A stretch of 64,000 nt of DNA, taken from NCBI GenBank assembly GCA_964016885.1, contig OZ024753.1:16988001-17052000 (forward strand), read 5' to 3'. The stretch comes from Eledone cirrhosa. Lineage: Eukaryota. The notes below the pieces were generated by a model. That model ran no database searches and was not told the origin of the DNA. It saw only the letters and a list, made by a program, of their open reading frames with translations. Made by a program: the position numbers and the translations under genes. The first letter of the stretch is position 1; the number at the start of each line of letters is the position of its first letter. Positions 15,521 to 63,325 of the stretch are shown in pieces.

Positions 15521-15705
15521 TAGGAAAAGCGTCAGGACCCCGACGGCTGAGCTCCGGCCGTTTCGACAGCTAGTTTCGATTCGGATCTAGCTGTCGAAAC
15601 GGCCGGAGCTCAGCCGTCGGTGTCCTGACACTTTTCCTATTACCCACTCTACTACCCTAAGTATCGAGTACTGTCCACCTGCTACCTTACCACACCATCT
15701 TTGTA
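15521..15705 (+). mobile_element. Palindromic PLE 3'-end fragment, family A
   Basis: ~52-bp inverted arms plus ~65-nt tail (TATTACCCACTCTACTACCCTAAGTA...) between (TA)n tracts. Confidence 0.85.
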
Positions 15706-15742
15706 AATGTATATATATATGTATATATATATAGGAAACTCT

Positions 15743-15837
15743 GACATATCCGAGGATCTTGCGATTTCAGAGTCAGGTTTGATCATTGCATCGATCGTGC
15801 CTCGAGCTGGTCGCCAGAGAAACGACTGTAATATGTC
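15743..15837 (+). ncRNA. Type I hammerhead ribozyme motif (CCGAGGA core variant)
   Basis: Stem I GACATAT/ATATGTC, CCGAGGA, stem II TCTTGCGAT/GTCGCCAGA with 44-nt loop, GAAA-CGACTG-TA. Confidence 0.75.
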
Positions 15838-15883
15838 TAATAAATCTTATTCGTCGCACCAATGATTCTCCGTTTCTTATGTG

Positions 15884-16362
15884 ATATATATATATATATA
15901 TATATATATATATATATATATATATATTTATATATATATATATATATATATATATTTATATATATATATATATATATATATATTTATATATATATATATA
16001 TATATTTATATATATATATATATATATTTATATATATATATATATTTATATATATATATATATATATATATATTTATATATATATATATATATATATATA
16101 TATATATATATATGTTTATATATATATATATATTTATATATATATATATATATATTTATATATATATATATATATATATATATATATATATATATATGTT
16201 TATATATATATATATATTTATATATATTTATATATATATATATGTTTATATATATATATATATTTATATATATTTATATATATATATATGTTTATATATA
16301 TATATATATTTATATATATTTATATATATATATATATATTTATATATATTTATATATATATT
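15884..16362. repeat. (TA)n microsatellite with TTTA interruptions
   Basis: Direct; one of many (TA)n tracts in the window. Confidence 0.97.
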
Positions 16363-16671
16363 TCTGCGGGTATGTCAACATTTATACAACAAATTTTGTA
16401 TTTTACCTGGTTGCCCTTGAAATATATATAATAAAATAATTATCGTTTTATAAATATAGTTTCCATTTATTAATATATTGAATATTTACTCCAGTAAATT
16501 GTTGAGTGCTTTATATCAATTATAAAACTTTTAAGCTTGTTGAATCCTCAACAAATTAATATATATATATATATATGTGAAGTAATTCCGTCGCAAAAGT
16601 CCAGGAAAAAAGAGTGCTCTATGTAGGTAACAGAGCTTAATAGTTATGTAATAAACAACATAAGGCAATTA

Positions 16672-16731
16672 TTCCATTTACCAGTGGTTTCTTAAAAGCA
16701 AAAAATTTTGCTTTCAATCCTCAGAATGAAA
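16672..16731 (-). ncRNA. Minimal hammerhead ribozyme motif
   Basis: Reverse complement reads TTTCATT CTGAGGA TTGAAAGCAAA..TTTGCTTTTAA GAAA CCACTGG TA AATGGAA. Confidence 0.8.
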
Positions 16732-16838
16732 AAATCCTGGTTTGTTTATTGAATTTGGATTTTAAAAACCTATATACATACACCATGGACCTTTATGAGG
16801 TTTTTTAAAATCCAAATTCAATAAACAGACCAGGATTT

Positions 16839-16898
16839 TTTCATTCTGAGGATTGAAAGCAACATTTTTTTCTTTTAAGAAACCACTGGTAAATGGAA
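16839..16898 (+). ncRNA. Minimal hammerhead ribozyme motif
   Basis: TTTCATT CTGAGGA TTGAAAG..CTTTTAA GAAA CCACTGG TA AATGGAA. Confidence 0.8.
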
Positions 16899-16939
16899 TA
16901 ATTGCATTATGTTGTTTATTACATAACTATATATATATA

Positions 16940-17300
16940 AAATTGCAAGATCCAATGAACTATTAGATAAAATATATACAGCATTTCCTCTCGCTAATCC
17001 GTAGAAATCAACGAGGCTATAAGTTTAAAATGTAACTATGAAGAAATAATAGACAAATGATACAGACTATCTTCCGCGAGGGACAGCAAGATAAAATTTA
17101 TCTAGTCATTCCTTTCAGCCCGTAGAAATTGACTAGACAAATAATCAACTACACGGAGTTAGGTATAAAATAGAAGTTTTAACGGACTGAGGAGAAGAAA
17201 TACTGTATATATTTTATCTAATAGTTCTTCAAACTTGATTAATGATTATTTGCTTAATTAATTCTTCATTGAGCCACACCGTGAAAGGTCTCCACACTCA
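16940..17300 (+). mobile_element. Fold-back fragment, family C (arms ~16957-16992 and ~17192-17227, tail on the right)
   Basis: GAACTATTAGATAAAATATATACAG and CTGTATATATTTTATCTAATAGTTC form an inverted pair between TA-rich tracts. Confidence 0.6.
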
Positions 17301-59850: not shown

Positions 59851-60609
59851 TAATATAAATACGTGTGTGTGTGTGTGTGTGTGTGTGTGTGTGTGTGTGT
59901 GTGTGTGTGTGTCTGTGTGTGTGTCACATATGCTAATACAGAATTATATTTTACTTTCTCCTATTTTTCTTCAGGCCCCAGCCCTTTTTGTTACACACAC
60001 ACCTACAGCCCCACACACATAAACGAATGGACACCTCGTACTATCAAACACAATCACACAGACATGCACAAACATGCGTACATTGATTCAACCCTATATA
60101 TTATATCCATATGAATAGGGTTTGTAGAGGGCTGGGACCTCTAGAAATGATAAGTCGTATAATTGCTACACTCGTATGAATAGAAAAGTTTATTGGAGCT
60201 ATCACAACCCACCCAAGTTGCTGTATAAGACTCACCGTAAATACATGCATTCATATATATATATATACTATATATATATATATATATATGCATTCATATA
60301 TACCATACACACACTCACACATACATATATACATATATATATATTTATATATTTATATATGTATATATATATGTATGTATGTATATGTATTTATATACAC
60401 ATATATATATTCACACATATATACACACATATATACATATATACACACATATATACATATATACACACACATACATGCATGCGTACATACATATTTACAT
60501 ACGTATTTACACACATACACACACGTATTTACACACATACACACATACATACATATACATACATATACATACACACATATATATATATATATATATATAT
60601 ATATATATA

Positions 60610-60960
60610 TTAGAAAGTGAGGTTTTTTTACAAAAGGAAAAAAAAACGAGGTGTCCTACACGAGTGAAAGTATAAGGAAAAAAGATGAAATCAAAAATGC
60701 AACTGGAGTCTTTTTTTTTTTTATTTATATATATTTATTTGGTTCCTTTACCGGTTTCGCAGTTCTTCTGCTTTTCAAAGGTAGAATTGAGATGGAGGGT
60801 TTGTGGTTTTTCTCACATCTGGAGAAAAACCACAGACCCTCCATCTCCAATCCACTTTTGAAAAGTAGAAGAACTGCGAAACCGGTAAAGGAACCAAATA
60901 AATATATATATATAAAAAAAAAGAGTCCAGTTGCATTTTTGATTTCATCTTTTTTCCCTA
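60610..60960 (-). mobile_element. Fold-back PLE-type fragment, family H (~140-bp arms, 7-nt loop, ~60-nt tail on the left)
   Basis: Arms ~60673-60814 and ~60822-60960 contain the hammerhead 3' half GAAA-CCGG-TA; (TA)n on both sides. Confidence 0.8.
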
Positions 60961-61630
60961 TATATATATATATATATATATATATATATATATATATATA
61001 TATATATACACATACATACTAATACATATACATGCAGCGGAACAGCCTGCTCATGAATTTAATGTGTGACTAAACATCTCTGAGATATGTGTAGTAATAA
61101 TATTATTCTCAGGGAGATTCAGCTTGACAGAGTATGTGACAAGGCGGGTTCTTTCAATAACAGGTACAGTCCAGTGAAACTGACAAACATCTTCTGTCAA
61201 CACTATTCCGTTTACGAGGCATGAGTTGATCAGAAGTGACGAGTGATAAGTGACACTCGGTCTAGTTTCCACGGGAGTGAGATCGAACCCGGAACAACAT
61301 GGTTGTTTAGAGAACTCTTTAACCAGTTACCACCCCCCGTCTAGGATCATACATAGACCCAGAAATGTTGACCCGTTATTCGTGAAATACTAGGGGCGAC
61401 TTTTTCCGAGGTTTATTGAAAATTCTAGATTTTTGGCCAAAAATATGGTGTCGACTTTTACGTGGGATCAACTATTACTCGAGGATATACGATATATATA
61501 TAATACATATGCATACCTATACACATCTATGCACACATATATATATATATATATGCACACACACACACACACATATATATACACATACATATACACACAC
61601 ACAGTTATATATATATATATATATATAATA

Positions 61631-61720
61631 AATGTAAGTTATCGCCGTATTTTGATACGGCGATAGCTTACATTCATAATTTCAAACTCGCTCGCTGTTT
61701 CGAAAATATTCTTACTTGAT
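61631..61720 (+). mobile_element. Miniature fold-back, family I (20-bp arms, 4-nt loop, ~45-nt tail)
   Basis: AATGTAAGTTATCGCCGTAT tttg ATACGGCGATAGCTTACATT between (TA)n tracts. Confidence 0.65.
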
Positions 61721-61737
61721 ATATATATATATATATG

Positions 61738-62060
61738 GGATAACAAATTAGCGTTATAGGTAATCCAGTTAGAGGTTGTGAGTACTCTGTATTGTGGATA
61801 GTTTTAATGTAGTTAGGTGGCGAGTTCGCGAGAATTCCTATGCAGCTTAATCTTGTAGTAATAATAGTGAAAGAGTGAAGAATAACATGGTCAACAGTAC
61901 AAAAAGGGTTTTATTTACAGTATTAACAATTGTTTCATTGATTAGGATGTCTAACGGTTGCTAATCACTTGATGTTGTGTTACTCAACCTTCAATACAGT
62001 ATATGCCTAATGAAATCATCGGAATAACTGGTTAATAACAGTTATTCCGATGATTTGATT
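61738..62060 (-). mobile_element. Family D PLE-type 3' end with a hammerhead at 61920-62027(-) and a short inverted arm at ~62039-62057
   Basis: Reverse complement reads TTATT CCGATGA TTTCATTAGG...CCTAATCAAT GAAA CAATTG TT AATAC; the tail abuts (TA)n. Confidence 0.75.
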
Positions 62061-62392
62061 CTCAACAAGGAAGATGAAAAAACTTGCCTCTTAATTTTAA
62101 ATCTCCCTTTTTTGTTTCTAATTCTTATTAATTCTTTTCAATTGTAATACTCAACATTTGATAAAATGAATTTTACTAATACATCGAAACCGGTTATACT
62201 TTATATATATTATAAACATTATAAAACTCTTTTTTAAAAGTATTTCCCTTCACATTTTTTCAATAATGTGATTTTGATGAAAAAAAAATTTCGTGCTATT
62301 TCCGTGCTATTTCCAACTTCACCTTCTCTCTCTCTCTCTCTCTCTCTCTCTCTCTCTCTCTCTCTCTCTCTCTCTCTCTCTCTGTATATATA

Positions 62393-62850
62393 TATAAGTT
62401 AAATCGATGAAATAAAAATTCAAGTCATTAGGAATATACTTCACTGCTTTACGATCGTTTCTAGCTGATAATAATACATCGTACACATATTTCGTTATCG
62501 ATCTATGTAAGGTTAGTTACAAAATATCAAAAGCTTTTGACAACGGCTGACGATATACACGTAGGTAAATATATTCCTTATTTGATATTTTGTAACTAAC
62601 CTTACATAGATCGATAACGAAATATGTGTACGATGTATTATTATCAGCTAGAAACGATCGTAAAGCAGTGAAGTATATTCCTAATGACTTGAATTTTTAT
62701 TTCATTGTTTTAACTTATATCATGACTCTGTTTTCCTTTTGATGTTTTATTGTTTTCCGGGATTTATTTTAACCTACAACATTTTCAACATATGGATTAC
62801 ATTGAGTTCTTCATGCAGACTAGACCCCAGAACTAACCGTGGATATTTCT
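62393..62850 (+). mobile_element. Fold-back PLE-type fragment, family J (arms ~62393-62531 and ~62581-62720, tail on the right)
   Basis: ~138-bp inverted arms with the hammerhead 3' half GAAA-CGATCG-TA. The arm-end/tail junction also occurs at ~35690-35732. Confidence 0.8.
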
Positions 62851-63105
62851 GTGTGTATATATATATATATCATCTGATGAGCGTACTGGACGTTTCTGTT
62901 TAGATCGTCTAGTTGCTAATGGAATAATTACATTGTGTTGTTTATTATGTAATTATATATATATATATATATATATATATATATATATATATATATTAAG
63001 CAATATATATTTATTCTTATCGAGCCCTCTTTGGATTTATTATTATTATTACTACACACACACACACACACACACACACACACACACACACACACACACA
63101 CACAC

Positions 63106-63325
63106 ATAATAAATGTAATCTGAGTTTTTCGAATATTAATAATAACATTCGATTGTGTTGGCATGCCAACACAAGAGCAAGAATGAAGGGTTCATTCTAC
63201 TGACATGGCTATAAAATTGATGCTTGTTTGCATAATTGCAAACGAATCGAATGTTATTATTAATATTCGAAAAACTCAGATTACATTTATTGTATTCAGC
63301 CATGTAGAGCGAAATTTTCTTTTAT
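63106..63325 (+). mobile_element. Fold-back fragment, family K (~48-bp arms, ~30-nt tail)
   Basis: AATAAATGTAATCTGAGTTTTTCGAATATTAATAATAACATTCGATT and its reverse complement at ~63245-63293, flanked by (CA)n and (TA)n. Confidence 0.7.

Follow-up and report, generated by a model that had tools for sequence, protein, structure and literature searches.

The hairpin insertions that lie in the (TA)n tracts of this window, the whole 64,000-nt stretch of DNA analysed, would best be read as head-to-head pairs of 5'-truncated PLE 3' ends, probably produced at a (TA)n target from two reverse-transcription starts, each likely set in the Hydra clade by a hairpin in the element RNA; we give this reading a probability of roughly 0.7. 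The certainty of PLE origin differs between families. Linkage to ORFs establishes it, at the level of sequence, for families A and G, as the sequence-only reading had noted. It is strongly supported for B and P by a Hydra-type tail hairpin together with a hammerhead, and is likely for E, H, J and K, which combine a hammerhead with the footprint. The earlier assignment of most non-coding hairpins to PLEs stands in these degrees and does not extend to C, D, I and L, for which relaxed scans of the window yielded no PLE motif or hammerhead.

Hairpin insertions and their TA flanks

From self-BLAST and arm alignments we count 17 hairpin insertions, remnants included, which belong to 11 sequence families (seven in A, one each in B, C, D, E, G, H, I, J, K and L) and three non-hairpin members (A at 37568, G at 35199, J at 20332). 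The elements, with solo fragments and family P included, are the following (unstranded: no single strand assigned).

15523..15704, +, family A hairpin with tail; arms with the 3' hammerhead half; tail hairpin at 15646
15734..15883, +, solo TA-flanked fragment; hammerhead core 15750, 62-nt stem II region
16362..16558, +, family P fragment; internally deleted hammerhead; tail with Hydra hairpin at 16488 (E 0.006)
16577..16927, unstranded, family B hairpin; 137-nt arms, a hammerhead in each: 16724 (-), 16846 (+)
16940..17353, unstranded, family C, old hairpin; 47-nt arms, 179-nt spacer
17481..17671, +, family A hairpin with tail; junction at a naturally occurring 7-bp inverted repeat
18715..18860, +, family A remnant, left arm and tail
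20332..20510, -, family J solo copy; hammerhead core 20493, loop III CAATTG
22916..23117, unstranded, family D hairpin; 53-nt arms; without TA flanks
23558..23906, +, solo TA-flanked fragment; hammerhead core 23804, loop III TGATCA
33535..33724, -, decayed relative (by eye) of the 15734 fragment; hammerhead 33676, one core change
33857..34052, -, family A hairpin, its tail shortened
34085..34193, +, internally deleted family A copy; stands back to back with the 33857..34052 copy, a TA tract between the two
35199..35511, -, family G solo tail-less 3' end; hammerhead 35352
35640..35908, +, family P fragment; hammerhead 35809, loop III TATATA
35938..36106, +, family A hairpin with right arm deleted, with tail
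36159..37218, unstranded, family E hairpin; 203-nt arms, 222-nt tail, and a 431-nt spacer with a TA tract at its end
37300..37530, -, family P fragment; hammerhead 37385
37568..39830, -, family A long copy; broken Hydra-clade RT end, linker, endonuclease 39826-38698
45120..45341, -, solo fragment; hammerhead 45217
50561..52444, unstranded, family G hairpin; 792-nt arms (98% identical), 244-nt coding spacer
52471..52695, +, family A hairpin with tail
53742..53979, -, solo TA-flanked fragment; hammerhead 53843, CAATTG; a weak tail-hairpin look-alike at 53769 is missed by the Hydra hairpin model
60611..60958, unstranded, family H hairpin; 144-nt arms, 64-nt tail
61628..61718, +, family I hairpin; 26-nt arms, 40-nt tail; no motif
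61841..62060, -, family J copy; hammerhead 62022, 26-nt inverted arm
62397..62855, +, family K hairpin; about 135-nt arms, 49-nt spacer, 140-nt tail
63108..63322, +, family L hairpin; 56-nt arms, 22-nt junction palindrome, 32-nt tail; no motif

A (TA)4+ run is found no more than 12 nt away from 48 of the 57 element ends examined; for non-TA background positions the figure is 6.4%. The count is partly circular because the solo-fragment ends were placed by eye at TA boundaries, while the arm ends derive from alignment. The earlier statement of about 20 insertions, mostly within (TA)n, agrees with these figures apart from D and J, which lie outside TA. The arms are oriented head to head with their 3' ends facing out, as two starts would have it, and in A, B, E, G, H, I, K and L one arm is prolonged by a tail peculiar to the family. 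These families therefore do not carry TIRs at both outer termini, a point that is less clear for C and D. Tails of 32-222 nt bear out the layout first described (arm, spacer, arm and a 30-220-nt tail), but the spacer is not always on the tailed arm: in G and A17481 it extends the arm that has no tail, and in K, E and A15523 the tail-bearing one. The layout also fits poorly in C, D and J, with C flanked by unique sequence on both sides.

Could some or all of the non-coding hairpins instead be MITEs, or DNA transposons of the fold-back kind that duplicate a TA target, with unrelated sequence beside them? Tc1/mariner-type MITEs have TA flanks and inverted arms, with which the hairpins agree, and C, D, I and L bear no PLE mark. 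Against this, one arm extends into a tail shared by eight family A copies, the arms are internal hammerhead pieces and in A and G run on into PLE ORFs, and solo one-armed copies occur, all of which makes such an origin very improbable.

Hammerhead motifs and PLE coding sequence

The strict pattern CYGANGA..GAAA-N4-7-TH with a stem I of at least 4 bp is matched exactly 13 times in 13401-64000, one per 3.9 kb, reproducing both the 13 motifs and the density of about one per 4 kb over the last 50 kb that had been claimed. The density is not that of shuffled sequence, where the mean is 0.16 (maximum 1 and 3 in two sets of 200 shuffles). Five of the 13 sit inside hairpin insertions (families B, G and J) and eight in solo fragments, which gives proportions to their reported placement in hairpins or adjoining TA-flanked fragments. 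Loop III is exactly palindromic in 7 of the 13 and never in shuffles; of the loops described as usual (CAATTG, CGATCG, TGATCA, TATATA), CGATCG is absent from the strict set and belongs to E and K, found by relaxed scans. These scans added five motifs, three with a U3-A8 core, for a total of 18; the U3-A8 motifs taken alone are weakly above chance (2 observed, shuffle mean 0.35, reached in 2 of 100 shuffles). The family E motif (core 36455, minus strand) lies where the tail-less arm stops within loop II, the family K motif (U3-A8 core 62537) is in the spacer, and family H has decayed U3-A8 hammerheads at 60858 (+) and 60778 (-) with a palindromic ACCGGT stem III and a stem I of 1-3 bp. A hammerhead or its 3' half is present in 7 of the 11 hairpin families; Rfam gave no hammerhead among the 150 of 370 matches listed.

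The 5' hammerhead half is missing from 7 of 8 family A copies, and in each of the four hairpin copies that were folded the motif is paired into the arm duplex. Most ribozyme copies in the window are probably inert, being halved, buried in duplex or dimer-dependent, so that the seeding of the genome proposed earlier would be true of motifs and probably not of activity.

In the family G hairpin, hammerheads at 50806 (-) and 52259 (+) accompany a 60-nt tail (50561-50620) and a coding region with thumb and GIY-YIG domains (Pfam PF01541, E 5.5e-4, just under the curated cut-off). Its linker, C-IDKK-CITC, reads CX4CxxC, a CCHH motif (C..C..H..H) is present, and the GIY-YIG is nearest, among named proteins, to one from O. 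bimaculoides (55%). The family A ORF is by sequence comparison of Hydra type (RT/EN, 41% to P0005): the RT end (YRDD), thumb and EN align with full-length relatives, the linker CNC-PDRST-C fits the CxCX5C of the Hydra clade, and the endonuclease lacks CCHH and has CxxC and CxH around conserved E and N (CNLC..E, N..CKH). RWK and DKT motifs are present in the closest relatives, the window copy being without that N-terminal region. A Naiad identity was rejected for both families, since their endonuclease is C-terminal and not N-terminal to the RT.

The long copy of family A, interrupted on its 5' side by a SINE-like repeat, has a 3' region of about 0.9 kb with a complete U3-A8 hammerhead (core 37751) and a tail hairpin at 37639. 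Majority letters from two organisms at 37740 and 37762 restore stem II and lengthen stem I of this hammerhead (pairing by eye), and in family A the basal pair of the tail hairpin shows a G-C to A-U change. Among organism A contigs, 106 and 110 pass from family A sequence into (TA)n at the internal site or close to it, and the joints at which the strand switches map to 37703-37705; no single contig among those searched for family A covers the tail through the ORF. Summed depth, which is not copy number, reaches 2.3-2.8 million in the final 150 nt, compared with 0.01-0.11 million across the ORF.

This large excess of short copies, with hairpin arms of similar length (50-65 nt), invites the view that the short family A hairpins are a self-propagating non-autonomous element or retrozyme and not repeated truncation products. 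We hold that to be improbable: the spacers differ from copy to copy and in two subfamilies, none of the 18 hammerhead motifs lies in a tandem array (period 40-1000), and a copy with just one start hairpin could not, under the two-start model, regenerate its tail. Of the two descriptions first offered, ultra-truncated fits better than non-autonomous, given the lack of tandems and at most one start hairpin per copy.

Twin hairpins and the two proposed starts

What could set the ends of these insertions? Of 78 Hydra-clade relative loci, many of them so closely related that counts are not independent, 54 have a hammerhead, usually followed twice by a covarying GCTC...GAGCACT predicted RNA hairpin, a motif chosen after the window tails had been seen and contained also in published Hydra consensi. 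Downstream of 36 plus-strand hammerheads with at least 160 nt free of TA runs, one hairpin is found in 33 and two in 24, hairpin 1 at 28-60 nt past the cut and hairpin 2 another 55-74 nt on. The upper stem pairs solely with a 2-nt bulge, reaching at least 3 bp in 31 of 80 (shuffles: mean 2.4, maximum 7), and 37 cells are changed on both sides against 13.3 in shuffles; the 4-bp lower stem, invariant by selection, contributes no covariation signal. When a hairpin model trained on none of the window sequence is run over 50.6 kb, its seven best matches are the tails of B, A and P, that of B (tail 16577-16639, hairpin at 16636, minus strand) scoring 34.2 bits (E 8e-8); the same search of the window found no such hairpin in the G, H, K and E tails.

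Ten of 17 TA-terminated Hydra-clade copies end before hairpin 1, seven of them 32-42 nt after the cut, and the other seven end after exactly one hairpin, 80-112 nt past the cut; an exact sister copy with native continuation was found for only three of the 17 (L045, L048, L065), with three more by eye. In 29 of 44 cases the 14 nt that precede hairpin 1 contain TATA/ATAT, compared with a background of 17%, and in the window the tail-less end overlaps (TA)n by at least 3 nt in 5 of 8 families (P about 0.008), the arms stopping at an internal TAT/TATA. Other observations count against two fixed starts: three tail-less ends lie outside the main cluster, at 63-73 nt; the overlap is 1-2 nt in E, I and L; and TA words are hardly enriched before hairpin 2 (TAT/ATA 13/25 against 43%, TATA/ATAT 8/25 against 17%). 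On balance it is likely that the twin hairpins set two reverse-transcription starts in the Hydra clade.

The same PLE origin would be compatible with another role for the twin hairpins, as a 5' UTR translation or transcription signal or an endonuclease DNA site, the ends falling at nearby AT-rich words. In 17 of the 19 loci that have an upstream repeat the pair precedes the ORF start by 34-72 nt, the accessible part of PMC11167929 cites the D. virilis tail as required for endonuclease recognition, and the TA word before hairpin 2 is weakly conserved. This alternative is possible but the less probable one: ends cluster right before each hairpin with none or one retained, and a fold of the sense-strand RNA is indicated by the G-U pairs and by a bulge on one side only.

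In the two-start reading, the GIY-YIG endonuclease would cleave both (TA)n strands, as is shown for PAc (PMC11167929, accessible part). A target strand ending in TA would then pair over 3-5 nt, the overlap observed, with the TAT/TATA word of the RNA, and the RT, likely bound at the GCTC..GAGCACT hairpin, would begin 6-12 nt upstream. A start before hairpin 1 would give the tail-less arm and one before hairpin 2 an arm whose tail is the unit with hairpin 1, consistent with the positions seen. Both cDNAs would end early, in family A usually inside hammerhead stem or loop II, and be joined at short complementary ends, so that either arm can be the longer. Both arms would probably come from a single insertion, each cut target end priming at one of two fixed internal RNA sites, and hammerheads would be carried along because they sit tens of nt upstream of the first start (36-151 in B, G and H). 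We give even odds to the more specific proposal that Hydra-clade PLEs use an RNA hairpin that is present twice and binds protein (a 4-bp GCTC/GAGC stem with a 2-nt bulge, a variable upper stem and ACT) to position the RT while cut TA ends pair, telomerase-like, with the TAT/TATA word upstream. If so, two hairpins would mean two starts, one per target end, and tail and head-to-head hairpin would be explained in one step.

Fold-back self-priming of one cDNA or an antisense template, as modelled in PMC3846280, would dispense with the joining of two cDNAs, and in its favour are junctions placed at palindromes or short inverted repeats of the native sequence (A17481, G, L) and, in family A, the clustering of junctions. 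Simple fold-back would place the spacer on one fixed arm, whereas it is seen on either, an objection that a possible later inversion of the spacer between the arms would blunt; nor can fold-back of a tail-less cDNA alone template the tail. We regard it as unlikely.

Relation to known PLEs and hammerhead elements

An inverted truncated copy with optional tail, (TA)n and hammerhead is a footprint already published. For tail-less arms ending at TAT/TATA and twin hairpins at insertion ends we found no earlier description in the literature searched; the words 'hairpin' and 'stem-loop' are absent from the main text and text-readable supplement of PMC8557442. The novelty claimed for a cephalopod at this scale is weaker than supposed: the accessible supplement of PMC8557442 has Hydra-1_Obim of Octopus bimaculoides with (TA)n preference and hammerhead, and PMC6962438 reports 235 hammerhead-1 loci in the giant squid.

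As far as the accessible part of PMC8557442 goes, Hydra-clade PLEs share with family A the C-terminal endonuclease, CxCX5C linker, lack of CCHH, and CxxC and CxH, and with the window elements the (TA)n preference, a hammerhead near the 3' end and inverted truncated copies; stem III of family B, ACCA-N-TGGT, matches Hydra-1_oBim by eye. Family A is a separate family and differs in its U3-A8 core and long near-palindromic stem III centred on GAGCTC, the File S2 motifs being canonical-core, and tails are 60-90 nt here against 30-40 there. Partial-tandem pseudo-LTRs, found in related loci such as L002, L045 and L053, were not seen in the window. Neptune/Nematis-type PLEs resemble family G in the CX2-5CxxC linker, CCHH motif and insertion in (TA)n, although in G just thumb and endonuclease are present and the type is read from motifs rather than a tree.

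The minimal PLE hammerheads of PMC4209133 (accessible part) are likewise type I, with a short palindromic stem III and a base bulged out ahead of stem II. Most are single copies left by truncated PLEs, and they include opposite-strand pairs 100-700 bp apart and a U3-A8 variant (about 1,300 in Schistosoma); activity is low even as dimers. The window differs in stem II regions of up to 107 nt, one long-stem-III family and many families within 50 kb. Non-LTR retrozymes (PMC7229834 and bioRxiv 10.64898/2026.07.22.740005, accessible parts) are also non-coding with a type I hammerhead and a proposed PLE origin. They are, however, head-to-tail tandems of complete motifs, and membership was rejected on the lack of tandem repeats at all 18 window motifs.

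The closest mechanistic parallel lies in PAc (Poseidon, Anolis carolinensis), for which the accessible part of PMC11167929 describes two internal RT starts whose spacing equals the tail, cutting and extension of both target strands, a need for RNA 3' of the start, and a hammerhead dispensable for insertion. The PAc start lies inside an AC-rich stem-loop within the ORF and is not homologous to the cut target DNA, which counts against the TA-word pairing model; the window and Hydra ends differ from it in that they fall outside translated sequence, immediately 5' of two copies of a hairpin, and overlap (TA)n by 3-5 nt.

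Hairpin insertions and hammerhead motifs

Three parts of the window (13400-25300, 28500-40400 and 44000-64000) were read directly and self-alignment covered the whole of it; 16 candidates were aligned arm by arm and eight family-A copies separately. These alignments resolve 11 families of hairpin insertions, with 17 hairpin or remnant insertions and three non-hairpin members. Candidate 23240, a small AT palindrome on arm alignment, was removed from the hairpin set. In 13401-64000 a strict scan finds 13 canonical hammerheads, where dinucleotide shuffles average 0.16 (two sets of 200, with maxima of 1 and 3, respectively), the comparison that the sequence-only reading had proposed, and loop III is palindromic in seven of the 13 and in none of the shuffles. 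The counts given in that reading, about 20 insertions and 13 hammerheads, are therefore right. Hairpin insertions hold only five of the 13 strict motifs.

A scan allowing long stems and the U3-A8 core, which is described in PMC4209133, adds a motif at 62537 in family K, with a stem II region of -25.5 kcal/mol and a CGATCG loop, and one at 37751 in the long copy of family A. This class stands only modestly above chance (two observed against a mean of 0.35, with 2 of 100 shuffles reaching two). Weaker hammerheads emerge from relaxed scanning and folding in families E (36455, canonical core, stem I of 3 bp) and H (60858 and 60778). A motif or half-motif is present in 7 of the 11 hairpin families (A, B, E, G, H, J and K); strict and relaxed scans found neither in C, D, I and L. 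The mismatched cores U3-G8 and C3-A8 gave no matches, and the minus-strand matches at 62814, 43402, 46641 and 56627 were discarded as chance together with weaker relaxed-scan matches. Among the 150 of 370 Rfam matches listed, all are of miRNA type and lie on hairpins and TA runs.

Other fragments and repeats in the window
62158-62197 (+): decayed U3-A8 motif, stem III ACCGGT as in family H
62870-62953 (+): relative of the family B 3' end, hammerhead deleted
17997-18054, 29147-29204, 50454-50486, 63003-63035: further AT-flanked family with hammerhead-like stem II, GAAA and stem III, no in-register stem I
17799-17946, 20547-20728, 24675-25990, 33153-33254, 39836-39958, 45740-45901, 46620-46711, 54735-55385, 56336-56525, 59445-59850: abundant SINE-like repeat (self-alignment), partly tandem with a period of about 220 at 25164-25904
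45946-46572 and 47970-49090, both (-): two LINE-like ORF fragments with Cys/His motifs
2913-13482: satellite, 43 bp, about 246 copies
30368-30976: tandem repeat, 55 bp, 11 copies

The Cys/His motifs of the LINE-like fragments presumably resemble the restriction-like endonuclease type; Pfam gave no match for either fragment. A retrozyme identity of the hammerhead families was rejected, because none of the 18 motifs lies within a tandem array.

Links to Penelope-like coding sequence

Families A and G had been read as joining the coding sequence of Penelope-like elements (PLEs), and both do so: family A carries a Hydra-type RT/endonuclease ORF and family G a CCHH GIY-YIG. The arms of both lie head to head, with 3' ends outward. 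The A copy at 37568 runs for about 0.9 kb and then into a broken ORF, which a SINE-like copy interrupts on its 5' side; in it, the RT end, thumb and endonuclease align to full-length relatives. This ORF has a CxCX5C linker and CxxC and CxH motifs and lacks CCHH, the combination that defines the Hydra clade in PMC8557442. Family G has a thumb, a CX4CxxC linker and the CCHH GIY-YIG, with 55% identity to an O. bimaculoides protein. Its Pfam match to GIY-YIG falls below threshold, and Pfam did not detect the Hydra-type ORF fragments of the window. A Naiad origin for A and G was rejected, and the Octopus Naiad 3' ends listed, compared by eye, matched no window family. No RNA run was listed as containing the family G end, from which nothing follows about expression. 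Of the 24 runs listed in the family G search, 9, from six organisms, contained at least half of the query words, and only shares of that size were used.

Every family-A arm is the 3' half of the 37751 ribozyme, with GAAA, a long near-palindromic stem III, GUC and stem I. Its U3-A8 motif has outside support in the contigs of two organisms. Positions 37740 and 37762 carry a majority letter there other than that of the window, and judged by eye these letters re-form stem II and lengthen stem I. Four runs were compared with family A. X1, which may share the source of the window, gave 27,840 contigs and X7 gave 12; X22 matched an AT-rich stretch near 38012-38087 and otherwise only traces, and X4 matched this stretch and two short ORF pieces. 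Contigs fall in all 30 bins of 37556-39830, the 3' region being bridged in parts and by no contig in full. At 33857-34193 a single TA tract of 31 nt separates two A copies that lie back to back; the pair makes a secondary palindrome, itself scored as a miRNA look-alike.

Element ends and the twin hairpin

For A, B, G, H and K, the arm without the unpaired tail breaks off at an internal TAT, ATAT, TATA or TATAT; the overlap there with (TA)n is at least 3 nt, against 1-2 nt in E, I and L, giving five of eight families with the longer overlap (P about 0.008 from local composition). In one contig source, organism A, 106 and 110 contigs switch from family A to (TA)n at this internal end site or close to it. 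The strand-switch joints of family A lie at 37703-37705, within stem/loop II, and depth drops about 20-fold upstream of 37707, a fall that stems partly from subfamily divergence and contig over-counting and does not measure copy number. The two arms could derive from one fixed fold-back or from two separately cut-off cDNAs. Since the spacer extends the tail-less arm in G and the A copy at 17481, and the tail-bearing arm in K, E and the A copy at 15523, this geometry favours two cDNAs. E alone among the families has its tail-less end (36380) inside loop II and hence the ribozyme 3' half in its tail; the start of the K tail (62713-62743) is repeated at 35705-35735, upstream of a copy of fragment family P, which suggests a chimera or a shared 5' region.

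A search built on 19 aligned relatives plus the fragment from the window drew 78 Hydra-clade loci out of metagenome contigs (from the best 80 of 335 matches), with a hammerhead in 54 and a U3-A8 core in three (L026:1769, L029:2400, L073:2103). Downstream of the hammerhead, GCTC-N-GAGCACT has 107 sense matches against seven on the opposite strand, and is found at least once in 33 of 36 informative cases and twice in 24. The first predicted RNA hairpin lies 28-60 nt after the cut and the second 55-74 nt beyond it; at 17 of the 19 loci examined, the ORF starts 34-72 nt past the second. The inner hairpin segment pairs only with a 2-nt bulge and covaries, with 37 double changes against 13.3 in shuffles, of which 0 of 500 reach 37, and with slid controls far lower, among sequences that are related and whose lower stem is invariant by selection of the motif.

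Seventeen copies end in (TA)n within 160 nt, ten without a hairpin (seven at 32-42 nt, three at 63-73 nt) and seven with exactly one (80-112 nt). Sister copies put the end at a TA word (a TAT/TATA-type string) 6-11 nt before a hairpin at two loci, L045 and L048 (where the hairpin is a variant), and less precisely at L065; by eye the pattern recurs in L002, L007/L013 and L057/L060. TATA or ATAT stands ahead of hairpin 1 in 29 of 44 cases against a 17% background, and ahead of hairpin 2 in only 8 of 25. Four inverted repeats among the metagenome loci were uninformative or cut by contig ends. At L048:2675-2956 (-) a second element has two opposite-strand hammerheads at the same TA tract as the Hydra end, and a GCTC..GAGCACT hairpin follows one of them.

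A covariance model of 35 relatives' hairpins, containing no window sequence, gave 18 matches at E<=10 in the 50.6 kb scanned. Tails occupy the first seven places, namely those of B, P and five copies of A (E 8e-8 to 0.006); A contributes two further copies at E 0.2-0.4. The hairpin in A, B and P begins 6-8 nt past the TA word where tail-less copies end. The model did not find it in the tails of G, H, K and E, families that probably belong to other clades. The twin hairpin offers a marker placing non-coding stubs in the Hydra clade.

A possible mechanism and its known counterparts

Geometry, motifs, ORF links, end positions and covariation are the observed part of the mechanism that we propose. 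Priming would occur from both ends of the (TA)n target, with the target end pairing at the TA word in the RNA and the enzyme binding at the hairpin; the cDNAs would stop early within the hammerhead structure and then be joined. We give about even odds (roughly 0.5) that the twin hairpin acts in start-site choice. Under this model a tail-bearing stub, retaining one hairpin, could not regenerate a tail; such stubs would be the dead-end products of tandem masters.

In folding of 18 motifs, the hammerhead shape comes to within about 0.5-8 kcal/mol of the local minimum. Four hairpins were folded whole (A17481, B, H and K), and in each the arms pair fully and the motif is buried. Stem III is mostly a self-complementary 6-9-mer, predicted to need a partner. 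The hairpins, if transcribed, would give long double-stranded RNA and not working ribozymes. For annotation, dense hairpins that score as miRNA look-alikes and are mistakable for MITEs are, in most families, probable PLE debris.

PLEs are the closest relatives of telomerase, and the question addressed is what determines their two internal start sites and how their inverted insertions are built. To our knowledge, their in vitro study covers one element only. In that element, PAc, the tail equals the distance separating two internal RT starts, according to PMC11167929. We regard the finding as real and its core as mostly known biology in a plausible host. In published accounts, PLEs typically leave inverted, shortened copies, with or without a 30-40-bp tail (PMC8557442; PMC3846280), (TA)n insertion occurs in nearly all Hydra families and Hydra-1_Obim of Octopus is listed with a hammerhead (PMC8557442), and minimal hammerheads number in the thousands, standing singly or in opposite-strand arrangement (PMC4209133). 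The apparent addition is the twin hairpin, proposed to mark start sites, with the TA overlap in Hydra-clade elements. Neither appears in the literature searched, which took in few subscription papers or Repbase/Dfam entries; the figures and supplement of PMC11167929, including the RNA fold of Fig. S2C, may bear on this. The repeated hairpin and TA alignment word make start-site choice open to direct mutational test, and the TA word may, by our own analogy, be likened to the alignment region of telomerase's internal template.
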